From: Candidatus Micrarchaeota archaeon CG1_02_49_24
GTDB lineage: Archaea > Micrarchaeota > Micrarchaeia > Anstonellales > UBA8471
Reading direction: 5' to 3'
NCBI GenBank assembly: GCA_001871535.1
Contig: MNVF01000048.1
Location: forward strand, 1 to 42,136
Length of the DNA stretch: 42,136 nucleotides
A program made the position numbers and the translations under genes. Below the pieces are notes generated by a model that was given only the letters and a program-made list of their open reading frames with translations, was not told the origin of the DNA and searched no databases. Position 1 is the stretch's first letter. Each line of letters starts with the position of its first letter. Shown here one piece after another: positions 1 to 42,136 of the stretch.

Positions 1-200
1 ATCAGATTTTCCGAAGAGCCTCTCTCGCTGATGCGAGAGACCCTGCACAATGTGCAGGGTATGAAGGCTCATTCGGAAATCCAGTTTTCGCTTGATAGCG
101 AAAATCTCAAGGACTGTTGTCCTTGAATTCTCGTGAAGTTGGCGCTTGGCATTCATCCCCGCCCGAAGGGCGGGGTATTCTGCCAACTTCACGATAAAAT
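1..200 (+). repeat. Hairpin-rich structured repeat, copy 1 (begins exactly at window edge)
   Basis: 5' 20-mer atcagattttccgaagagcc is shared with 29921 and 42019. Closing helix 4-20/66-81. Hairpins at 85-104 (ttttcgc/gcgaaaa) and 109-124 (aaggac-tgtt-gtcctt). Long helix 132-143/182-193 is capped by ccccgccc-gaa-gggcgggg (157-175). The 3' module is near-identical to 30091-30145. Confidence 0.7.
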
Positions 201-2895: not shown

Positions 2896-3705
2896 TCATA
2901 TCCCAAACTCCTTCACATTCACCCACTCAGCGCTGATTAATGCCCACCAGTCAAGCGCAAGCCCCTGGAGGACGTATTCATATGGCAGGTAGCCATAGCC
3001 CTTGTCCCCCCACTCATCGCCCCAGGAATTCCTTATTATGAACGCGCCGGTGGATTTCCCTATTCTCATGCCGTCATCATATCCAACTGCCAGAACCGCA
3101 TGGCCCCCAAGCACTGATTCGCCCTTTTCAGGGAACGGGATTTTGCCTTCCTTTGCTTCCCTGATTGAGTTATAGACAGTAAACCCGAACATTACCGGGA
3201 TTTCCCCTGCCAGCGTTTCCCGTATGTTTTGTAGGATTTTTTCCTCAGATTTTGCCTGCTCGTCCAATCGGAAGTATTTGAGCGCCTGGTAATTCTGGGC
3301 AAATGAGTAGCAAAAGGCCGGGGGCTCGCTGTCAATTTCTTTCTCAGAATATTCCCAATACTTCTCAGGCGGGGCGCCGAAGAGTACGAGCGCGCCCATG
3401 GTTGTGCGGATATAAGCGCCGGTATCGCCTGTCTGCTGCATCAAATTCCTGGTTGCCTTGTAGATGAACAATCTTGAGACGGTTTCGCTTACTCCCAGCG
3501 CCTTCTTCCTTGAGAATTCGCAGATGCCCGCCGCGGCGTTGGCAGTGCAGGAGCCGATGTTGCCCTGATTAAAGATTGGTGTGCAGTATTTGCGCAGGTC
3601 AACCCTTTCAGAGGGCGCTGTTTGCTTCAGAAGCGAGCTTATTTCGGTTGTGTCTTTTGTGTAATCCCTTGTATCAGGAATGTCTGGAATCCAGCCGAAT
3701 TTCAT
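2896..3705 (-). CDS. Papain-like (C1 family) cysteine peptidase
   Basis: NQGNIGSCTANAAAG (catalytic Cys), GGHAVLAVGYDD (His) and IRNSWGDEWGDKGYGYLPYEY (Asn-Ser-Trp). MKFGW at 3705 is the likely start. The track extension to 3798 translates an A/T-rich promoter. Confidence 0.85.
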   Translation of the reverse strand: MKFGWIPDIPDTRDYTKDTTEISSLLKQTAPSERVDLRKYCTPIFNQGNIGSCTANAAAGICEFSRKKALGVSETVSRLFIYKATRNLMQQTGDTGAYIRTTMGALVLFGAPPEKYWEYSEKEIDSEPPAFCYSFAQNYQALKYFRLDEQAKSEEKILQNIRETLAGEIPVMFGFTVYNSIREAKEGKIPFPEKGESVLGGHAVLAVGYDDGMRIGKSTGAFIIRNSWGDEWGDKGYGYLPYEYVLQGLALDWWALISAEWVNVKEFGI

Positions 3706-3867
3706 AGAAACCACCGCGATAAAGTATATACAAATGATTAGATAAAATGAAGGGTTGGAAACTGATACTTGCTCGAAAAGGATAAAATCATTAAACAAAA
3801 CTAGATTTAATCCAATTTAATTGAATGGATTCCACCAGTCTCTGACTTGACCCTTGTGTCAGGATTG

Positions 3868-3955
3868 GATTTTACGAAGATACTGCGTATCATTCGAAAC
3901 CCGGATTGAGCCAATTAGGCTCAATAGTGCCGCATGCAGCATTTGCTGCATACGG
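3868..3955 (+). repeat. Degenerate member of the structured repeat family (5' module only)
   Basis: gattttacgaaga..tcattcgaaa closing helix as in copy 2, followed by hairpins attgagcc-aatt-aggctcaat and gcatgcagc-attt-gctgcat. Confidence 0.4.
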
Positions 3956-3969
3956 TCCTGCGCCGTTGC

Positions 3970-3987
3970 GATGAACTGCGAGGAAAC
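3970..3987. repeat. 18-nt direct repeat gatgaactgcgaggaaac (left copy) flanking the AbiE cassette
   Basis: Identical 18-mer at 5852-5869. Both encode VSSQFI on the minus strand in frame with flanking gene halves. Confidence 0.8.
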
Positions 3988-4095
3988 CCTCACCCCCCTG
4001 CCGCGCAGGTATATTCCCACGCTGTTTTTGGATGAAGTGCCTTTCGGGGGAAAGCGCATCGCTATCCATAAAAGAGTCAGAAATTCTCGTGTCAT
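3988..4095 (-). pseudogene. N-terminal half of a DUF1931/histone-fold-like small gene (separated from its C-terminal half)
   Basis: ..SSKNSVGIYLRGRGVR then the VSSQFI core. After the core, the reading frame continues into unrelated or repeat sequence (track ORF 3859-4095). Confidence 0.35.
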
Positions 4096-4165
4096 TTTAC
4101 TTATATACCTGCCACGACATCATGCAGTGGAGGGCCTTGCGCCATTTCCCGTGCCATGGGGGCGT

Positions 4166-4966
4166 TCAGGCTTGCACATTCTCCAAAAACCGGTTGACCT
4201 GGTCCGCAACGATATTTCTTCCGTATCTGTTTTCAGTAAAAATTTCAACCTGGAACGGGCCCATCTGGTTCGCGTTCATGAACTTCTCCCTGACAACCGA
4301 AAGGGAATGCGCAAGCAGCTTTTCCATTCCCGGTGCAAGCTTCCTGCCGGAAACGGCCTTATTGAAATATTCCGCAGCCATCTCCGGGCTTCCGCCATAG
4401 TGCGTGAGCGCAAAAACATCATAGGAGTCCTTCGGCTTTGCCCTTCCGTCCAGTGCCTGCCCCTTGAGCGCGAGCGAGCCGACTAGGTCAGCCACCTTTA
4501 TGCTGGTTTTCACAGCCCCGTTGCCAGGCAGAACCGTTTCCACCTCCTGCCCGAAGTTGAACTCAAAAGCGAGATTCAGGCCTTCAAACGTGAAAGCCTG
4601 CAGGTCAGCCTGCACGTCCTTCAGGCCAATGTACTTTGCGCCTTCCTTGTCGCAGAGAAAGTCAAGGTGGATGCCATAGTCCTTGCCGTCAACCGGCGAT
4701 TTCACATCCCTTGAAAACCTGAATTCGTTCTCCTGTTCATAGCCAAGCCCGAGGACGCTCTTCTTTATCGTGTCGTATTTCTGCATCACTTTTGTGCGGA
4801 GCGCCAAATCTATGTCTATGCTCCCGCAATGGTCGAAATGCCCCCTTGTTATGAAATAAGGCGCCCGGCCTCCGGTAAGCACGATATCATTGTGGTATCG
4901 CTTCAATTCCAGGCCAAGCTCAAGCAGGGCTGATTTTGACGCGCTGGTTTCCTGAGTTCCATACAT
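4166..4966 (-). CDS. abiEii: AbiEii-type nucleotidyltransferase (type IV TA toxin family)
   Basis: IVLTGGRAPYFITRGHFDHCGSIDIDLAL NTase signature. 266 aa. Lies 4 nt downstream of the AbiEi-like gene. Confidence 0.7.
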   Translation of the reverse strand: MYGTQETSASKSALLELGLELKRYHNDIVLTGGRAPYFITRGHFDHCGSIDIDLALRTKVMQKYDTIKKSVLGLGYEQENEFRFSRDVKSPVDGKDYGIHLDFLCDKEGAKYIGLKDVQADLQAFTFEGLNLAFEFNFGQEVETVLPGNGAVKTSIKVADLVGSLALKGQALDGRAKPKDSYDVFALTHYGGSPEMAAEYFNKAVSGRKLAPGMEKLLAHSLSVVREKFMNANQMGPFQVEIFTENRYGRNIVADQVNRFLENVQA

Positions 4967-4970
4967 GGGC

Positions 4971-5633
4971 TCATTTCCCCTCTTTCCATCGTTTTTGGAT
5001 ATTTTTCAGTATCTCCCCGGCCGCCTCTTCGCCCCTCCCGGGATAATTCAGCAAATCCGCATAGAGCTGCACGTCTGAAACAACCCTCACGCCATCTATC
5101 GGGTTTGAACCGTAAAAAACACCGCTATTGCCGGCAATCGCGAACTTCACGTTCCCCCCGCTCTCAATCGGCCTTAGCCCGGCCATGCCTGCCCAGTATT
5201 CCGCGTCTTTTTCATTTCTCACGTATATGTGCGCACCCATCGGCCTTACGAACGGCGCGGAAAGGAGCGCGCCTGCCTGGCAGGTGAACGCATATTCCGG
5301 GCCCTGTTTTCCCTTGAAACGCGCGAACAGGAGGGAGACATCATTTTCCTCCATATAATACTCAAGGAAGCGCGTGTTTGCGGCAAAGTTGCGGTAGTTC
5401 GCCCAGCGGCGCAGCAGGTCTTCAGGGGCCATAATCTTAAGCCCGCCCCTGTCAGTGTCGCGCAGTGCCGCCCGTTCATTTATGAGCGCCCTGCTGACCG
5501 CGGATGCCCAGCGCAGCGAAACCCCGGCTTCCTTGCAAATCTCGCGGAGAGTCCAGGTTTTCGGATATTTCACAAGCAGGGCCCGGAGAATATCCTCTGC
5601 CTTGCCCCGGAAGATGTTCACTGTTGCCGCCAT
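4971..5633 (-). CDS. abiEi: AbiEi-type wHTH antitoxin/transcriptional regulator
   Basis: N-terminal wHTH (WTLREICKEAGVSLRWASAVSRALINE). C-terminal VSDVQLYADLLNYPGRGEEAAGEIL is typical of AbiEi C-domains. Confidence 0.65.
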   Translation of the reverse strand: MAATVNIFRGKAEDILRALLVKYPKTWTLREICKEAGVSLRWASAVSRALINERAALRDTDRGGLKIMAPEDLLRRWANYRNFAANTRFLEYYMEENDVSLLFARFKGKQGPEYAFTCQAGALLSAPFVRPMGAHIYVRNEKDAEYWAGMAGLRPIESGGNVKFAIAGNSGVFYGSNPIDGVRVVSDVQLYADLLNYPGRGEEAAGEILKNIQKRWKEGK

Positions 5634-5755
5634 GCAAATACTATGTTTACCTATATTTATATATGTTTACTTTATGTATACATAACTTCTGCGCGAGAGG
5701 ATGTTTACCTTCCTTTATATATGTTTACTAAAAGTAAACATACTCGCCCGACCCC

Positions 5756-5851
5756 TTACAAATCCTGCGGCATCACCGTGCTCCTTCCGTTCTTTTCCGC
5801 CCTTTTGATTGCAGCTTCAAGGATTTCCTTTACTTTCGCATCGAGTTGCGG
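5756..5851 (-). pseudogene. C-terminal half of a DUF1931/histone-fold-like small gene
   Basis: PQLDAKVKEILEAAIKRAEKNGRSTVMPQDL* directly follows the VSSQFI core. Sequence upstream of the core (track ORF up to 5947) does not resemble the family N-terminus. Confidence 0.5.
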
Positions 5852-5869
5852 GATGAACTGCGAGGAAAC
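5852..5869. repeat. 18-nt direct repeat gatgaactgcgaggaaac (right copy)
   Basis: Identical to 3970-3987. Extended similarity gttgcg(g)gatgaactgcgaggaaac. Confidence 0.8.
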
Positions 5870-6038
5870 TCGCCCGGCTGGGCGAAGAGCTCGTTCCAGT
5901 GGAAGTGAAATACCAGAATCAGATAAGCAACAGCGATTACAATGCAATCAGGAAATTCAAGCACGGCATAATAGCAACCAAAAAAACGTTTGAGGCAAAG
6001 GGCCAGCATGTTGCGATACCATTGCCGATACTGCTGCT

Positions 6039-6080
6039 ATTCGTATGAATGCCGGGAAGCCAGCCGAATTTCATAGAAAC
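6039..6080 (-). pseudogene. Remnant of a second peptidase 5' end plus upstream region
   Basis: ccagccgaatttcatagaaac (6060-6080) is identical to 3691-3711. It encodes MKFGWLPGIHT.. versus MKFGWIPDIPDT.., then diverges. Confidence 0.6.
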
Positions 6081-6221
6081 ACCCAAAAGAATTTTTATAA
6101 ATAAGGAGAATATAATGGGAGGGGGTTGGATGGTTGATTAGATTTGTCACAGCTTCAGCATATCTCTCAAAATAGCTGCCATGCTTGCTATGTCCTCCTG
6201 TTCCATAAAAAGGGAAAGTTA

Positions 6222-6350
6222 TTATTGGGGTTCGGTTTTGGAGTGTTCTCTTTCGTATTTTAACCAGTCCAGGTCGCTTGCGTCATTCCAGGCTTTGAAC
6301 TCTTCCTTCATCTCTTTTTCTGTGGGTTTAGATTTTGATGTTCTTTTCAT
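6222..6350 (-). CDS. Small hypothetical ORF (42 aa), not in track
   Basis: MKRTSKSKPTEKEMKEEFKAWNDASDLDWLKYEREHSKTEPQ*. It starts right after the aattgaatggattccacc motif. No recognisable family. Confidence 0.25.
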   Translation of the reverse strand: MKRTSKSKPTEKEMKEEFKAWNDASDLDWLKYEREHSKTEPQ

Positions 6351-6360
6351 TCAATTGAAT

Positions 6361-6487
6361 GGATTCCACCTGTCGAGCCGATGCAACCACCAGTCAGAGA
6401 CAGGTGAAATCCATAGCGTCAACAAGCATGCGCCCCGAGCGAAGCGAGCAAGCCACTGGTCTATGACCAGTGGTGGGCGCATGCTTA
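6361..6487. other. Two large palindromes immediately 3' of hsdR (possible terminator or repeat)
   Basis: ggattccacctgtc (6361-6374) pairs with gacaggtgaaatcc (6399-6412). aagcatgcgccc (6424-6435) pairs with gggcgcatgctt (6475-6486) and encloses ccactggtc-tat-gaccagtgg (6453-6473). The outer 3' arm overlaps the hsdR stop. Confidence 0.45.
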
Positions 6488-9400
6488 TTGACTCCACTCT
6501 TTGGCAACTAATTCCGCCTGTTCTAGCACGGTTTGGGTAGCTTTTTCCTGTTTGTCAGGCGGATATCCGTATTTTCTCAATATTTTTCTGACGGCTATCC
6601 TTATCTCTGCCTTAACGCTTTCCCTGACTGACCAGTCAATTTTTACATTCCTTTTCAAGGTTTCAGTTAACTCACGTGCAATTTTCCTTAATGTTTCATC
6701 ACCAAGAACTTTGACTGCACTATCGTTTGTTTCCAGGGCATCGTAAAACGCCATTTCATCTTCCCTCAAATTCAGTAATTCCCCTCTTTTATCGTGCTTT
6801 TTCATCTCTTTTGCCAGCTCTATAAGCCGTTCAATTACTTCAACAGTCTGTATATTCCTGTTCTGATATTGACTGATCGTTTTTTCCAGCAACTCTGTAA
6901 AAGATTTAGCTGCAACCTTATTCTTCTGTTCACATACTTTGATTTGGTCATTAATCAGCTTTTTCAGCATCTCTAGTGCGAGGTTCTTCTGCTCCATCCC
7001 CTGCACTTCAGCAAGAAACTCATCTGACAATATGGAGATGCCAGGTTTTTTCAACCCTGCAATTTCGAATATGTCTATTACCTTGTCAGAGGCAATGGCC
7101 TTCGAGACCAGTTGCCTAAGCGGTATATCATAATCCTCTTCAGAATACCCTGGTTCGCTTCCCGTAAGTTTGCCCAAATATGCTTTCAACGTCTGGAAAA
7201 ATCCCAGTTCATCAGCAATTTTCATTGCTTCCTCATGGGGCACGGATAAGGCAAAGGCGCGCTTCAACGCAGCAACATTTTTGAAAAATCTTTTTTGCCC
7301 ATTTTCTTGCCTGAGAATATGATTCATTGCATCTCTTAGAATCGTCTCTTTTTTTGAAAGCGCTGCTGTGGCAAAATCGTTATAATCAAACCCATGAAAC
7401 ATGCTGGATACTATCTCATATTTTTCGCGCATGATTTTGATGGCATCCTCCTGTTGGAATACTGGAGTACCTCCCCCACCGCTTTTAGTATATGTAAGGG
7501 TTGCTTCCTTAAGTGGTTGGATTATTCCTATATAATCAACGACCAGCCCGCCTGGTTTACCCTTGAAAACCCGGTTCACCCTTGCGATCGCCTGCATCAA
7601 CCCATGCTCTTTCATAGGTTTGTCAATGTATATTGTGTGAAGGCACGGCACATCAAACCCGGTAAGCCACATATCCCTGACGATAACGAGTTTAAGTTCA
7701 TCACCTGGGTCTTTTATCCTGTTTTCTATCATTTTCCGTTGTAGTTTGGTTCTCATATGCTCTCTTGCAGCGCCGGTTATGACTACTTTGATAGCGCCCT
7801 TGTCGTGCTCTTTGCTATACCATTCTGGCCGTAGTTTGACTATCGCATCATGCAAATCTATGCAAATCCTCCTGCTCATGCATACTATCAAACCTTTTCC
7901 GTCTAATGCGGCTTGCCGTTGTTCAAAATGGCTGACAATATCCTCGGCTATGTGCCGGATTCTTTTTTTTGCCCCTACGACTTTTTCCATTCGTGCCCAT
8001 TTTGTTTTCAATTTCTCTTTTGTTTCGGTTTCCTCAGCTTCAGTTATCTCTTTAAAGTCAGACTCAATTTTCGGCATTCTTTCAGTTTTCAGCCCTATTT
8101 TCGCAAGCCTGTTCTCGTAATAAATCTGGACGGTCATGCCGTCGTTTACGGATTGTTTCATGTCATAAATATCCTTGCATCCTCCGAAAACTGCGGTGGT
8201 GCTCCGGTCATTCGTTTCAATGGGCGTAGCCGTGAACCCTATGAACGATGCGTTTGGCAGGGCGTCCCGCATGTGCCTGGCAAACCCGTCTATGAAATCG
8301 TATTGGCTCCTGTGCGCTTCATCTGCGATTACTACAATATCCCTTCTGCCTGAAAGGAGCGGGAATTTTTCTCCTGCCTCAGCTAAAAATTTCTGGGCGG
8401 TTGTAAAGACGATTCCGCCAGACGCAACCTTCAGGAACTCTTTTAGCGCTTGTTTTGTTGCTGCCTGTTTTGGCATATTCCGCAATAACTCGCTGCATTT
8501 GCAAAAGGTTTCAAACAGTTGGTCGTCAAGGTCGTTCCTGTCTGTGATTACAACTATCGTCGGGTTTCCCATTGCGTCTACTATCTTCCCGGTGTAGAAT
8601 GCCATTGTCAGGCTTTTCCCGGAGCCTTGCGTATGCCAGATTATGCCAGCCCGTTTATCCCCAGAAGGACTGGCAGCTTCAATGGTGGATTTTAGCGCAG
8701 CTAATACGGCATAATATTGGTGATAGGCTGCAAGTTTTTTTATTATCTTTTCAGAGCTTTTGGATTTTTCTTTTTCAAATGTTATAAAATGCCTGACCAA
8801 ATCAATAATTACCTCCTTCCTGAGCATATCCAGAATAAGAGTATCCCTGGAAAATTGGTCCAACTCCTCCAAAACCTTGCCGTCAATGGCTTTCCATTCC
8901 ATAAACCGCTCTATATCCGAGCTGATAGTGCCGGCCCAGGCCTTAACGCCGTCGCTTATGATTATTATCTCATTGTAATGAAAGAGCGTGGATATCTCCC
9001 TAAGGTATCGTTGCATCTGAGCATAAGCTGTTGCCTTGTCTGCCTTTTCTTCTGCAGGATTTTTGAGCTCAATAACGACTAATGGCAGGCCGTTTACGAA
9101 TAGCACGATGTCAGTCCGCTTGTTTATGCCGTTTTCCTTCACAGTGAACTGGTTCACTGCCAGGAATTCGTTATTTTTGAGATTGGAGAAATCAACAAGC
9201 TTAACTGTGTCATCTTTGATAGAGCCATCCGTTCTCCGATATTGAACATCCACGCCGTCAACAAGCATTTTATGGAACAGATGGTTGTTGTGGATTAGCT
9301 TCTGGCTCTCAGCGCGCAGGACTTTTTTAACTGCTTCCTCTTTTGCATCGCCCGGAATCGCAGGGTTGGACCTGTCAATTGCATCGTTCAGCCGCTCAAT

Positions 9401-21921: not shown

Positions 21922-22617
21922 ATGATTAAGGCAATCCTATTCGATTTGGACAATACCCTGATTGACTTCTCAGGCTTCAAGCGGGAGAGCGCGCTTGCTG
22001 CAGCCAGTGCCATGAGAAAGGCAGGCGTGCATCTTTCCGGGCATTCGCTTTACGGGCGCATTTACGAAGTCTATAATGAGAAGGGGATTGAGTACCAGCG
22101 CACGTTTGGGGATGTGCTCTACGGATTGGATTTGGACCCACATACGCGCGAGCGTGCACGGCAGGCGGCAATTATTGCCTATACCAAGAAGAAATATGAG
22201 TGCCTGAAGCCACGGCCAAAGGCCATGCAGCTGCTAACATCCCTCAGGGCGAAATACACGCTGGCCATTGTCACGGATGCGCCCAGGGACAAGGCATGGC
22301 AGCGGCTCATTCTCTCAGGGCTGGACGGGTTTTTCTATCCTGTTGTGACTTTCAACGATACGGGCGAGGAGAAGCCTGCGGTTGCGCCGTTCAGGAGGGC
22401 GCTTTCCATCTTGAAAGTGAAACCTGTGGATGCGCTATTCGTAGGTGACAATCCGGAAAGGGACATTATCGGCGCGAAAAAGATTGGGATGAAAACCTGC
22501 CTTGCGAAATACGGCTGCCAGGATTACCACGAAGAGATGGATGTGGCGGATTACAGGATTGGGAAGTTTGAGGAACTGAAAGAGGTTATTGAAAGATTGA
22601 AAGCCAGTGAGCAATAA
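21922..22617 (+). CDS. HAD-superfamily hydrolase
   Basis: MIKAILFDLDNTLIDF (DxDxT motif I), IVTDAP (motif II) and GDNPERDIIGAKKIGMKT (motif IV). ATG 21922 is preferred over the track start at 21874. Confidence 0.85.
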   Translation: MIKAILFDLDNTLIDFSGFKRESALAAASAMRKAGVHLSGHSLYGRIYEVYNEKGIEYQRTFGDVLYGLDLDPHTRERARQAAIIAYTKKKYECLKPRPKAMQLLTSLRAKYTLAIVTDAPRDKAWQRLILSGLDGFFYPVVTFNDTGEEKPAVAPFRRALSILKVKPVDALFVGDNPERDIIGAKKIGMKTCLAKYGCQDYHEEMDVADYRIGKFEELKEVIERLKASEQ

Positions 22618-25257: not shown

Positions 25258-25314
25258 TTCCATGGTCTCTCTAACCTTTTACGGCGGCGCGAACGAAATC
25301 GGCGGCAATAAAAT
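25258..25314 (+). pseudogene. 57-nt duplicate of the RNase J gene 5' end (direct repeat with 26488-26544)
   Basis: ttccatggtctctctaaccttttacggcggcgcgaacgaaatcggcggcaataaaat is identical at both places. It encodes MVSLTFYGGANEIGGNKI and then breaks off. Confidence 0.9.
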
Positions 25315-25320
25315 TACAGC

Positions 25321-25401
25321 GAAGAGATGGATGTGGCGGATTTCAGGATTGGGAAATTCGAGAAATTGCTGGATGTAATGGAAAGGATTGGAGGGGATTA
25401 G
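25321..25401 (+). pseudogene. Diverged duplicate of the HAD hydrolase 3' end
   Basis: Encodes EEMDVADFRIGKFEKLLDVMERIGGD*, compared with the HAD C-terminus HEEMDVADYRIGKFEELKEVIERLKASEQ* (22530-22617). It directly abuts the RNase J 5' fragment. Confidence 0.8.
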
Positions 25402-26481
25402 ATGGCATTAATTGGGATGAAGAAAAAAGGGTCAAGCAAAATCGATTTTTTGGAAGAAGCATCGTTTGAAAAAGATAATAAAGAGGACTACCTGCATAAA
25501 ATTTTAGAAGAAAATCCGCTCCTCATTGTGTCGGAGATTTTTGATACGAAAGTTGTTCTTCTAAAAAGTAAATTTTCATTTTCATCTGGAGATGAAGCTG
25601 ACATGGTACTATGTGACGCCACAGGTGATCTGGTAATTGTAGAACTGAAAAGGGGGAGGGCGCCCAGGGACTCAATCGCCCAGCTTATGGATTACGCATC
25701 GCAAATCAGTAAGATGAGCATTGAAGAATTGCTGGTGCAGACGCGTTTTAGGGATATATCAGAGGTGATAACGGAGTTTGGCGTTGATGTCAATGAAAAC
25801 AAAGAAAATTTTGAGGAAACATTCAAAAAATCAATGGATAGCCCTAGATTGATGCTGGTTTCATACGATATTCCAGATGACATAAAACGAGTTGCTAAGT
25901 GGCTTAGGACAAAAGGCATAATGATTAATTGCGTGGAATTCGATTATTTCGCCAGTGGAGAGAATGAATTGTTTGTTCCCAAAGTAATCGGTTCAGATGA
26001 AACTGCGCAGATAATGGCAGAGTCCTTTACAAAAGCTGAGAAACTCAATTTTGATTACACCAGCCTCTTGATACGTGCTTTCAAGGATAAAAAACCAGGA
26101 ATTACTAACAGAGAAGGAACGCATGGTAATTGGATGGGGTTGCCTGCAGGGTATAATGATGTTCATTTTGAATGGCACCTGAAAGGAAGAAGACCTAATA
26201 AGGAAATTCAGGTATGCCTAGATTTTGAGAATGATGACAAAAATATAAATCAGCAACGCTTGGAACAATTTAAGCAGATGGAACGGCAATTCGAAGAAAA
26301 AATCGGTGAGAAACTCGATTTTATCCCTCACGGAAGAAACTGGATGCGTGTCTGCGCTAAAAGGCCGGTGGAAACGCTGGAAAAAGCAAAGGAAGATGAT
26401 AACTTGAATTGGGCAGTAGACACTATGGTTAAGTTCTATGAAGTCCTAAAGCCAGAACTTGACAGAATAATGGCTAAATAG
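25402..26481 (+). CDS. NucS/DUF91-like PD-(D/E)xK nuclease domain protein with DUF4268-like C-terminal region
   Basis: GDEADMVLCDATGDLVIVELKRGRAPRDSIAQLMDY gives D...E-L-K...Q-x-x-x-Y. The C-terminal half is recalled as DUF4268-like (NWMGLPAGYNDVHFEWHL). A/T-rich. Confidence 0.6.
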   Translation: MALIGMKKKGSSKIDFLEEASFEKDNKEDYLHKILEENPLLIVSEIFDTKVVLLKSKFSFSSGDEADMVLCDATGDLVIVELKRGRAPRDSIAQLMDYASQISKMSIEELLVQTRFRDISEVITEFGVDVNENKENFEETFKKSMDSPRLMLVSYDIPDDIKRVAKWLRTKGIMINCVEFDYFASGENELFVPKVIGSDETAQIMAESFTKAEKLNFDYTSLLIRAFKDKKPGITNREGTHGNWMGLPAGYNDVHFEWHLKGRRPNKEIQVCLDFENDDKNINQQRLEQFKQMERQFEEKIGEKLDFIPHGRNWMRVCAKRPVETLEKAKEDDNLNWAVDTMVKFYEVLKPELDRIMAK

Positions 26482-26491
26482 GGTAATTTCC

Positions 26492-27850
26492 ATGGTCTCT
26501 CTAACCTTTTACGGCGGCGCGAACGAAATCGGCGGCAATAAAATCCTCCTTGAGGACAAGGGCGCCAGAATCTACCTTGACTTCGGCCAGAGCTTCAGCT
26601 TCGGCGAGGATTATTTCTACGACTGGCTGCAGCCAAGGAGCGCACACGGCCTGGAAGTGTATTTCGAGTTCGGCATGCTGCCCAAGGTGCCAAGGCTTTA
26701 CAACAAAGCCATGCTTGAAAAAACTGACTTGGAATACGAAAAGCCCGACATTGACGCGGTATTCATCTCGCACTCGCACTCTGACCACGTGAACCATCTG
26801 CCATTCATTGACGAATCCATCCCTGTTTACATGGGCCACGGCACCCATAAATTGCTTGAGACATACCACACGCTTTACCCACAATTCAGCGACATAGGCG
26901 AACACGCCAATCTCAACCTCTTCAAGTCAGGGGATATAATACAAGTCAAACACCTGGTAATCGAGCCTATCCATGTGGAGCATTCGGTGCCGGGAGCCTA
27001 CGGGTTCATAGTCCATACCAGCAAGGGGCCGCTAATCTATACAGGAGATTTGCGCATGCACGGTCCGCAATGCGAAATGACAAAGGAATTCGTGGAAAAG
27101 TCCGCGGCCTGCAAGCCCTATGCCATGCTCGTAGAAGGCACGAGGATGGGCTATGGGCAGCATCATAACTTCACCGAGGCGGAAGTGGAAAAGGAAGTTG
27201 AGCAGAAAATAAAGGCATCCAATGGGCTTGTATTCGGCTATTTTGCCATGTCCAATGTGGACAGGTTCATGTCATTCTACCGCGCAACCGTGAAGAACGG
27301 GCGGAAGCTGGTGATTGACACCAGGCATGCATATATTATTGATAAGCTGAGGGAGAAAATCCCTGCGCTGCCGGACGTGATGGCTGACTGGAATATCCTG
27401 GTTTATTACAGACAGGCAAAGAGCGGCACCTACAAGGAAACGGATTACTACAATTATGAGCGCAAATTCATGCCCAAAATGATAACCCACAAGGAAATTG
27501 CAAAAAGCCAGAAGGAGTTCGTGATGCACATGAGCTTCAACAAGCTGATGGAACTGGTTTACATCCAGCCGAAGAATGCAGACTATATCTATTCGTCATC
27601 CGAGCATTTCCTGGAAGGCGAGGAGAATGAGGAGGAAAAGAGGGTGCTTGACAACTGGATGCGGCATTTCGGGGTGGCTTTTCACAAAGCACACTGCTCA
27701 GGCCATGCGAGCAGGCAGGACTTGGAGGATATGGTGAAGAAAATCAATCCGAAGGTGCTTATCCCCATCCATACGCAGAATGCCGGGGATTTCAAGGGGA
27801 TGCATTCAAATGTGTGGATACCTGAAAAAGAAAAGAGAATGGAGATATAA
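26492..27850 (+). CDS. rnj: Archaeal-type RNase J (MBL / beta-CASP ribonuclease)
   Basis: FYGGANEIGGNKILL N-terminus, HSHSDH (HxHxDH), and C-terminal HCSGHASRQDL..PIHTQN beta-CASP motif C. ~450 aa. Confidence 0.8.
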   Translation: MVSLTFYGGANEIGGNKILLEDKGARIYLDFGQSFSFGEDYFYDWLQPRSAHGLEVYFEFGMLPKVPRLYNKAMLEKTDLEYEKPDIDAVFISHSHSDHVNHLPFIDESIPVYMGHGTHKLLETYHTLYPQFSDIGEHANLNLFKSGDIIQVKHLVIEPIHVEHSVPGAYGFIVHTSKGPLIYTGDLRMHGPQCEMTKEFVEKSAACKPYAMLVEGTRMGYGQHHNFTEAEVEKEVEQKIKASNGLVFGYFAMSNVDRFMSFYRATVKNGRKLVIDTRHAYIIDKLREKIPALPDVMADWNILVYYRQAKSGTYKETDYYNYERKFMPKMITHKEIAKSQKEFVMHMSFNKLMELVYIQPKNADYIYSSSEHFLEGEENEEEKRVLDNWMRHFGVAFHKAHCSGHASRQDLEDMVKKINPKVLIPIHTQNAGDFKGMHSNVWIPEKEKRMEI

Positions 27851-29920: not shown

Positions 29921-30145
29921 ATCAGATTTTACGAAGAGCCATCCGCCTGCGAAGCAGGCGGTATTGGCTCATTCGAAAATCAATTCTCCTTGCGAGGAGA
30001 AATCTCGACGGCTGCTGCCATCGAATTCTCGTGAATTTGAATTCGCCTGTTGGCGAATAGCTCTCGCATCCCATGGATGCTCGATGGCGTCTTGGCATTC
30101 ATCCCCGCACGAAGTGCGGGGTATTCTGCCAATTCACGATAAATA
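29921..30145 (+). repeat. Hairpin-rich structured repeat, copy 2 (full length, with two extra hairpins)
   Basis: atcagattttacgaagagcc. Closing helix 29924-29939/29966-29981. Hairpins ttctcct-tgcg-aggagaa (29984-30001), gacggc-tgct-gccatc, attcgcc-tgtt-ggcgaat (30041-30058) and gcatc-ccatg-gatgc (30066-30080). Cap ccccgcac-gaa-gtgcgggg (30103-30121). Confidence 0.7.
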
Positions 30146-36022: not shown

Positions 36023-36098
36023 GCAATAGATAGCTGCATGAGCTCATAAAAAACAGCAAGTTCCACAATTGTGGAATGTTTCATGAAAAAAGTTTAAG

Positions 36099-36172
36099 CG
36101 CCCCCGCCGGGATTTGAACCCAGATATCAAGCTCCGCAAGCTCGCGTTCTGTCCAGGTTAGACTACGGGGGC
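36099..36172 (-). tRNA. tRNA-Arg (anticodon GCG)
   Basis: Acceptor GCCCCCG/CGGGGGC. Anticodon arm CGAGC-TTGCGGA-GCTTG. T arm CTGGG-TTCAAAT-CCCGG. Discriminator G. No encoded CCA. The D arm was parsed by eye only. Confidence 0.85.
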
Positions 36173-36196
36173 AGCATTCAAATTATAGTTGTGAAG

Positions 36197-36204: not shown

Positions 36205-36347
36205 GAAAGGTTGAAGGGGCGCAAGAGGAAGAACTATGTCTGTACGAGGGCGACAGCCGCTTGCGTAAATTTACGAAGTAAGCAGGTTTGAAAGGGCTGC
36301 AAGCCATTTCGGAGGGGTTATAGGGGAACCGCAAAGCAGGTTCCCCA

Positions 36348-36372
36348 TCTGTCCAGGTTAGACTACGGGGGC
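36348..36372 (-). repeat. 25-nt duplicate of the tRNA-Arg 5' end (acceptor + D arm)
   Basis: GCCCCCGTAGTCTAACCTGGACAGA is identical to 36148-36172. It is followed by a GGGGAACC-TGCTTTGC-GGTTCCCC hairpin, and no matching 3' acceptor strand is present. Confidence 0.85.
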
Positions 36373-36478
36373 ATCTCTGTGTTAATCAGATATAGATTTA
36401 AATATTCAGTCAATATAAACTTATACATTAAACGTATAGACAGCTTGCTGTTTAATTTATGTTTTTGAGGTGTTTAGC

Positions 36479-42018: not shown

Positions 42019-42136
42019 ATCAGATTTTCCGAAGAGCCCATGACACTTTGGAGCGACCCGGGCCATGTGCGATTTCATGGGCGCTCGGGCGTCGGGTTTG
42101 CCACTCAGCATTGCCGTATGGCAAACCTCGCTCCGA
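42019..42136 (+). repeat. Hairpin-rich structured repeat, copy 3 (truncated by window end)
   Basis: atcagattttccgaagagcc is identical to copy 1. The interior differs but is still self-complementary (cccatga/tcatggg; ggagcga/tcgctcc; gtttgcc/ggcaaac). Confidence 0.6.

Follow-up and report, generated by a model that had tools for sequence, protein, structure and literature searches.

A short-histone gene in two swapped halves around an abiE cassette in a Micrarchaeota defense island

Introduction

How does a gene come to lie in two halves that stand in the wrong order, 1.88 kb apart, with an intact toxin-antitoxin cassette between them? The question is raised by the spacer between hsdR and the papain-like peptidase gene pepC1 on contig MNVF01000048.1 of a tiny groundwater archaeon, Candidatus Micrarchaeota archaeon CG1_02_49_24 (assembly GCA_001871535.1; positions 1 to 42,136 of the forward strand). 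This whole stretch of 42,136 nucleotides (nt) was analyzed and is called the window below. Within the spacer, two exact copies of an 18-bp direct repeat enclose abiEi, abiEii and a conserved spacer that we call D, and next to the repeats lie the two halves of a short-histone gene. An initial annotation, made from the letters alone, had likened the segment to mobile elements whose attachment site lies inside one of their own genes. Here we describe the broken gene and its relatives, the evidence on whether the segment moves, and the events that may have produced it.

Results

The 18-mer, GATGAACTGCGAGGAAAC, occurs at 3970-3987 (the left copy, or left core) and again, as an exact match, at 5852-5869 (the right copy). 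Both copies encode VSSQFI on the minus strand in the same frame, exactly as the initial annotation had it. No third copy was found in the window when up to three mismatches were allowed, so that the 18-mer is a two-copy repeat and does not belong to any broader repeat family. Two matches were obtained in none of 100 shuffled controls. The bases that adjoin the two copies differ on either side, identity between the flanks being at background level, and no change in GC content marks the borders of the segment. Read along the minus strand, the order is flank, core, C-terminal half of the histone gene (C-half), abiE, D, N-terminal half (N-half), core and flank. The island around the segment is unusually rich in short repeats: the window contains nine pairs of exact direct repeats of at least 18 nt within 3 kb, compared with none in 30 Markov simulations.

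The two open reading frames (ORFs) at the repeats each contain one half of a single short-histone gene, and the order of the halves is circularly permuted, a proposal of the initial annotation that alignments to intact genes bear out at about 90% DNA identity. Next to the right core, the C-half (5756-5851, minus strand; PQLDAKVKEILEAAIKRAEKNGRSTVMPQDL, then the stop codon) forms with that core the 3′ part of a 63-amino-acid (aa) ORF at 5756-5947. Next to the left core is the N-half (3988-4059, minus strand; MRFPPKGTSSKNSVGIYLRGRGVR), which was recognized by DNA alignment to intact genes. In the intact homologue at locus L026, positions 1568-1637 align with window 4032-3965 at 90.0% identity and positions 1611-1728 with window 5871-5754 at 90.7%. 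The halves are complementary, and the two alignments overlap at the 18-mer and a few flanking bases. For the N-half, homology to intact genes extends only from 4032, which is about codon 8; the earlier codons are unrelated, and upstream of 4032 lie D and a short 5′ end of unrelated sequence, whose ATG is at 4059. In this genome the histone gene is disrupted and is not one contiguous gene.

Joining 4095-3970 to 5851-5756 in silico gives a product of 61 aa that reads ...MRFPPKGTSSKNSVGIYLRGRGVRVSSQFIPQLDAKVKEILEAAIKRAEKNGRSTVMPQDL. On a family hidden Markov model (HMM) built from 45 family members, with the window sequence left out, the joined protein scores 90.6 bits, core plus C-half 68.0 bits, N-half plus core 21.8 bits and the reciprocal join 8.1 bits. 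Three intact 59-aa homologues (P0001, P0005 and P0006) are each 83% identical to the joined protein over the aligned length in a protein search, P0001 reaching 92% in its best local alignment, and a further intact 59-aa homologue, P0002, is 68% identical. The short-histone family comprises 263 representative clusters. Its profile matches the solved HLp (‘DUF1931 domain-containing protein’, 9qt0) at 1.3e-15, HTkC (9f2c) at 2.4e-14 and HBb (8fvx, 8cmp) at about 3e-10, and its invariant residues R47, R53, T55 and D60 are all kept in the joined protein; the R..T....D motif and the protein length are shared with HBb, HLp and HTkC. The AlphaFold model of the joined protein (predicted local distance difference test score, pLDDT, 78.3) has helices at residues 11-20 and 29-50, and Foldseek matches it to 9qt0, 9f2c and 8fvx with template modeling (TM) scores of 0.84-0.91 and a root mean square deviation of about 1 Å. 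The gene, joined only in silico, is thus a full-length short histone and belongs to the HBb/HLp/HTkC (DUF1931-like) class, as the first reading of the locus had expected. The DUF1931-like label that came with that reading stands through the match of the family profile to HLp and does not stand in Pfam: the Pfam DUF1931 model, which is a 138-position doublet, finds the C-half only, and at 17-17.7 bits stays below its gathering score of 21.8.

As they lie in the genome, the two ORFs are most likely non-functional remnants. On the family HMM, the 63-aa ORF is without a recognizable helix 1, its stretch outside the core contributing about 2 bits, and the left ORF, of 66 or 78 aa, is without a convincing helix 2 to C-terminal part. 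VSSQFI itself is no conserved motif of the histone family, and the 18-mer core is conserved no better than its surroundings among the intact relatives.

The stretches outside the two cores are not alike. The right flank (5870-5947, minus strand) is open in the histone frame and is not histone-like (0.6 bits, p = 0.14-0.21). The left flank (3859-3969, minus strand) is open for 36 codons, carries two palindromes of 8-12 bp, and is faintly similar to the histone C-half (5.7 bits, p = 0.008-0.02; in-register BLOSUM test, p = 0.0006-0.007). Its DNA identity to the histone gene, 34%, is at background level and not significant. We rejected a second histone paralogue, consisting of right flank, core and left flank, as the target, because this reciprocal ORF has no homologue and scores only the 8.1 bits given above, the right flank is not significant, and the left flank is only faintly similar, with DNA at background; we keep it as a weak possibility. 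A single-sequence AlphaFold prediction of the reciprocal ORF, one long helix, was an uninformative model. Also rejected was the idea that the flanks are peptidase remnants, as a pepC1-type gene is represented there by no more than its first 10 residues (6048-6077). These belong to an outer, older direct repeat: a 5′-end fragment of a pepC1-type gene (MKFGWLPG; 6047-6099, minus strand) is 77% identical over 53 nt, 21 of them in an exact run, to 3678-3730 (minus strand) at the start of the intact pepC1 (2896-3705). A further direct repeat outside the 18-mers, the GGTGGAATCCATTCAATT element, stands at 3815-3840 and 6349-6374 (18 nt exact). These outer repeats give the entire hsdR-pepC1 spacer the appearance of an older duplication or insertion that surrounds the abiE segment.

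The cargo of the segment is a bicistronic pair on the minus strand, antitoxin first. Both genes are intact: abiEi, the antitoxin/regulator gene (4971-5633), lies 4 nt upstream of abiEii, the gene for a putative DUF1814-type nucleotidyltransferase toxin (4166-4966). An AbiEi_2 domain is found in Pfam at 32.7 bits against a cut-off of 21 bits, and the AbiEii domain (PF08843), at 17.5 bits, remains below its 22.5-bit cut-off. AbiEii has 134 homologues, of which many carry a precomputed PF08843 assignment and some are named AbiEii/AbiGii by NCBI (the closest named homologue cited, P0018, is 71% identical), and its sequence is the same as that of a protein from ‘Candidatus Micrarchaeota archaeon CG06_land_8_20_14_3_00_50_6’. 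PADLOC gave no match for the AbiE proteins. A repeat search of the promoter region (5643-5742) revealed repeated and inverted ATGTTTAC...GTAAACAT operator-like sites, as repeats at 5643-5684 and 5701-5742 and as an inverted repeat at 5662-5684 and 5720-5742; homology to abiE relatives begins at about 5747. The AbiE family is a type IV toxin-antitoxin and abortive-infection module (PMC3985639, PMC7319586). The window's pair has in common with these systems the bicistronic arrangement, the AbiEi_2 domain, a putative nucleotidyltransferase of the DUF1814 family and the inverted repeats in the promoter; it differs from them as a divergent archaeal version, known from sequence, that PADLOC does not match and whose AbiEii is under the Pfam cut-off. 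With its own promoter and operator-like sites, AbiE is likely to be a functional, selected cargo.

Relatives of these parts were sought in a genome-contig collection that is without the window's own species, and the nearest loci are those of other Micrarchaeota. The abiE relatives (L042-L048; 68-83% DNA identity) align only with window 5747-4104/4168, a stretch that takes in the promoter, abiEi, abiEii and some 60 nt past them. No histone pieces were found in these related cassettes, and in view of their alignment to just 5747-4104 we rejected the histone pieces as part of the abiE cassette. Likewise, abiE was not found beside the related intact histone genes. Because related abiE cassettes occur without histone pieces and intact histones without abiE, the ‘element’ is a mosaic of histone gene, abiE cassette and spacer D.

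The intact histone genes have a setting of their own. In L026, L030, L033 and L034 they overlap by 4 nt an upstream gene for an Orc1/Cdc6-like ATPase (Cdc6_lid, AAA_16/22), and in these relatives the short histones are translationally coupled to Orc1/Cdc6-like AAA+ ATPases, a coupling of which no description was found in PMC13260811. Immediately past the histone stop codon the relatives diverge. Spacer D (4040-4156, minus strand), a conserved non-coding sequence seen in comparison with L033, L034 and L042, is common to Micrarchaeota of different sites, the other copies lying at 6796-6975 of L033, 6216-6350 of L034 and 921-1100 of L042. It consists of an inverted repeat, TCGYG/CRCGA, around a TATA-like ATATAA (ATATAAACAAAA), with a compensatory change in two of four sequences, and could be a promoter/operator or a structured RNA. 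D comes right after the histone gene in L034, after a histone 3′ fragment in L033 and after abiEii in L042-44. In L034 the cdc6-histone pair is downstream of hsdR, as in the window, and D is followed by a gene for a VirB4/TraG-like ATPase, a neighbor that suggests a plasmid-like or integrated element as source. In L033 (6004-6975), from a Lac Pavin Micrarchaeota metagenome-assembled genome (MAG), a GNAT acetyltransferase gene (6226-6696) lies between the histone 3′ end and a copy of it at 6738-6795, a 58-nt aligned repeat of 84% identity after which D begins. Cassettes bracketed by histone-gene repeats therefore recur.

Does the segment move? On paper, recombination between the 18-mers yields what the initial annotation had described, a circle of 1,882 bp with an intact 61-aa gene, abiEi and abiEii. 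On the plus strand, the circle junction would read ...GCATCGAGTTGCGG + 18-mer + CCTCACCCCCCTGCC..., and the empty site left behind ...CTGCGCCGTTGC + 18-mer + TCGCCCGGCTGGG.... Fifteen contigs with the exact AbiEi or AbiEii protein were retrieved from four NCBI MAGs and from JGI, ENA (k127, k141) and Logan assemblies of many samples; they are 99.8-100% identical to the window and have the same structure wherever the repeats are reached. Two further Logan contigs agree with this arrangement. The neighboring pepC1 is present in 22 contigs, with abiEi-abiEii at 461 nt in 10 of the 10 places shown. No arrangement other than the window's emerged from exact-protein look-ups with AbiEi, AbiEii, a fragment of AbiEii and pepC1, and neither the joined protein nor the product of the reciprocal ‘empty-site’ ORF had an identical entry among about 5.8 billion clusters. 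A pattern for the four types of junction matched just two metagenome (JGI) contigs, both of which have the known right junction, and scans of viral contigs gave no junction match. That the locus lacks an integrase had been noted at the outset; among the 35 ORFs scanned with Pfam none was found. The suggestion of a mobile element with empty-site or circular variants fails on the present data, with neither form turning up in the collections searched, and there is no support for the segment as a self-contained mobile element, now or formerly.

Two side observations concern the ends of sister contigs. Four independent contigs (L012, L013, L005 and L004) break off at 3999-4069, near the junction of D and the N-half and 12-82 nt before the left repeat is reached; this could reflect a co-existing variant or low coverage. 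In sister contig L012 (GCA_002779685.1), an IS200/IS605-type Y1 transposase gene (within 1-653) adjoins window position 6137, and L010, L011 and L014 likewise begin at 6137; this insertion sequence (IS) is a strain-specific insertion. IS200/IS605 elements were rejected as the agent of mobilization, since 18-bp repeats are not made by such elements and a permuted gene would not result from them.

Discussion

How did the halves come to be swapped? The reading that we favor, and to which we give an even chance, is that one reciprocal crossover of the Campbell type left the arrangement behind as a fixed scar. In single crossovers of this type, such as plasmid co-integrates and IS26 translocatable units, a circle meets a second copy of a sequence that it carries, and its cargo ends up bracketed by direct repeats. 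In our case, we infer that the donor was a small circular DNA with a complete short-histone gene, abiEi-abiEii just past its stop codon, and D, and that its origin was a ‘cdc6-like ATPase - histone - cassette - D’ locus in a mobile or variable region of Micrarchaeota. The target would have been the spacer between hsdR and the papain-like peptidase gene in the chromosomal defense island. An exchange within the 18 bp of identity, in the middle of the histone gene, would have destroyed that gene and left AbiE with its own promoter and operator-like sites, presumably the part under selection. Candidates for the enzyme are a recombinase acting in trans and host homologous recombination on short identity. 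The join of D to histone codon 8 may go back to an earlier excision, or to an internal deletion that later shortened a larger integrated cdc6-histone element.

The exchange is placed inside the 18 nt because the two halves are equally diverged from L026, overlap at the repeat and give way to background identity outside it, and a single reciprocal exchange predicts such equal divergence (90.0% and 90.7%), overlap and complementarity. The crossover is further supported by the joined product being a full-length family member, which the reciprocal join is not, and by the order of the pieces inside the repeat, which matches the local order in L034, L033 and L042-44. With two events, the circle route is also the most economical.

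Several points weigh against such a crossover. The crossover presupposes that the 18 nt stood in the target beforehand, for which only an att site or a decayed histone paralogue would account. The donor circle requires a prior event that joined D to histone codon 8. Of the flanks, the left alone is faintly histone-like (p about 0.01) and the right is not. Since hsdR is upstream of the histone gene in L034 too, the upstream piece may be resident and not imported. Finally, the assembled contigs and protein collections searched showed no empty site or circle, and neither the segment nor any of the 35 window ORFs of at least 100 aa that were scanned with Pfam showed an integrase or recombinase domain.

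Some of these points fit better with a stepwise local rearrangement in which no circle took part, a possibility that we consider serious, if on balance unlikely. Here the native order would have been hsdR ... cdc6, histone, abiE, D and then a decayed histone-like ORF. A conversion or duplication would have put about 63 nt of the histone gene, from codon 8 to the end of the core, into the downstream ORF, and a separate deletion or replacement would have taken away cdc6 together with the 5′ sequence of the upstream copy as far as the core, so that the 18-nt repeat would be the overlap of the kept and the copied parts and no recombination site. This would account for the asymmetry of the flanks, as the left flank, which has the right length and register, faintly resembles a histone (p = 0.0006-0.02) and the right flank does not. 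It would also suit the left ORF's own ATG, which is well placed (61 versus 59 aa) behind D with its TATA-like ATATAA, and the order from hsdR to histone that the window has in common with L034. The order ‘histone, cassette, D’ is native in relatives, and other partial-gene repeats occur at cassette borders in the island. However, the stepwise route needs at least three events where the circle needs two, and no relative was seen with D followed by a histone-like ORF. The histone origin of the left flank, on which it leans, is weak, given DNA identity at background level, a low-scoring reciprocal ORF and an uninformative AlphaFold model.

It is doubtful that the 1.88-kb segment is a currently active mobile cassette without an integrase, in which excision between the 18-mers rebuilds the histone gene on a circle through a recombinase supplied in trans. 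The repeats are 100% identical and in frame, and in-silico excision gives an intact gene behind D. AbiE-type toxin-antitoxin pairs could select against their own loss and thereby hide empty sites. The four contigs that end near the left repeat might also be cited, but they stop short of the repeat and not at it. Against an active cassette stand the integrated form in every related contig fetched, with no circle, empty site or joined protein found, the lack of a recombinase domain among the 35 ORFs scanned, abiE relatives that are unlinked to histone pieces, and a core no better conserved than its surroundings in the intact relatives. A broader version of this idea is a long shot: Micrarchaeota, a DPANN lineage, would possess a platform for cassettes that is anchored on the histone gene (‘cdc6-like ATPase, short histone, variable cargo, spacer D’); cargo such as AbiE or GNAT would be exchanged by way of small circles, which recombine inside that gene and need no integrase of their own; and the window's cassette would still be excisable, rebuilding the histone gene downstream of D as its promoter, while its toxin-antitoxin pair kept it in place.

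We regard it as very improbable that two independent full-length histone paralogues flank abiE, with the 18-mer as a conserved motif of both. Both ORFs are indeed open in the histone frame (78 and 63 aa), and the left flank has its faint similarity to the histone C-half. But the 18-mer is exactly where DNA identity to the intact relatives, about 90% up to that point, sinks to background, and the two copies are complementary in this; VSSQFI is no family motif; identical codon use over six codons is unexpected in old paralogues; the right ORF is without a recognizable helix 1; and close homologues of the 63-aa and 78-aa ORFs were not found in other lineages. An assembly artefact, a chimeric join at the short repeat that stands at both borders, can be excluded for practical purposes, because several assemblers and many samples (the NCBI MAGs and the JGI, ENA and Logan assemblies) give the identical structure, and 18 nt is shorter than the k-mers used.

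How does the locus compare with known systems? A gene split into swapped halves by integration is already known in kind, as is the AbiE system; new in detail are a histone-fold gene as the one that is split, a segment without a recombinase and a DPANN host. In SSV-type elements, integration partitions the integrase gene (PMC7253208, PMC8371274). As in those elements, the crossover site lies in the segment's own gene, the halves are swapped at the ends with a short direct repeat, and excision would rebuild the gene. Unlike in those elements, the split gene encodes a histone fold and not an integrase, none of which was found, the segment is just 1.9 kb, no excision product was seen, and the target is not a tRNA gene, the sole tRNA in the window being tRNA-Arg at 36098-36172. 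The window resembles Campbell-type integration in that cargo is bracketed by direct repeats of a shared sequence; it differs in that this sequence is just 18 bp, the target copy is no recognizable gene or IS, there is no transposase and the circle itself is conjectural. With the short prokaryotic histones HBb, HLp and HTkC (PMC10627809, PMC11317129, PMC12701072, PMC11390915), the joined 61-aa protein shares its fold, motif and length, whereas the gene is broken in two here and its intact relatives are coupled to an Orc1/Cdc6-like ATPase gene. D, with one palindrome around an AT-rich box, is unlike attC.

Integron cassettes and defense-island hotspots hold variable cargo, including toxin-antitoxin cassettes, at sharp boundaries. 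The loci described here likewise have variable cargo (abiE, GNAT and others) between a conserved gene and a conserved spacer, but, in contrast to integrons, they have no IntI-type integrase and no attC, and they are a handful.

The window as a whole is a chromosomal defense island, with type I restriction-modification genes, Schlafen/AlbA ATPases, PIN, Mrr, a DUF4268/NucS-like nuclease and Fic, and it further holds the tRNA-Arg gene and housekeeping genes. Other repeats and modules were seen in it. A 57-nt exact direct repeat (25258-25314 and 26488-26544) brackets the DUF4268/NucS-like gene (25402-26481); it consists of 4 nt and the first 53 nt of the MBL/beta-CASP gene at 26492-27850, and its upstream copy is fused to 25313-25385, a stretch 82% identical to the 3′ end of a HAD gene (22523-22595). 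A contig of a sister MAG, L057, departs from the window upstream of 26474, and strains therefore differ at the border of this cassette. The 5′ half of the tRNA-Arg(GCG) gene (minus strand) is repeated 200 nt away (36136-36173 and 36336-36373; 87% over 38 nt, 26 nt exact) and may be an old integration scar. A 20-mer, ATCAGATTTTCCGAAGAGCC, is present in four copies, at the start of the window (1-20), 98 nt from its end (42019-42038) and at two internal sites (2837-2856 and 29921-29940), with a longer similar stretch after it at 91-186 and 29989-30132 (75-95% identity). Beside the peptidase gene, at 644-2879, lie genes for a MarR/CasR-like helix-turn-helix protein (291 aa), a DUF6036 nucleotidyltransferase-like protein and an HNH protein, which may be another toxin-antitoxin or defense module.

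As it stands, the locus is one fixed rearrangement in one population, and an ordinary AbiE module is the one part of it that is presumably functional. Its main value is for annotation, as two small ‘hypothetical’ ORFs can be recognized as the two parts of one broken histone gene. Should the circle route be true, the locus would be a clean natural example, from a DPANN archaeon, of the capture of cargo into a defense island by a single crossover, on very short identity and within a gene that is not a recombinase gene. The more promising lead is the type of locus in which cdc6, histone, cargo and D follow one another, for which Micrarchaeota could now be surveyed.

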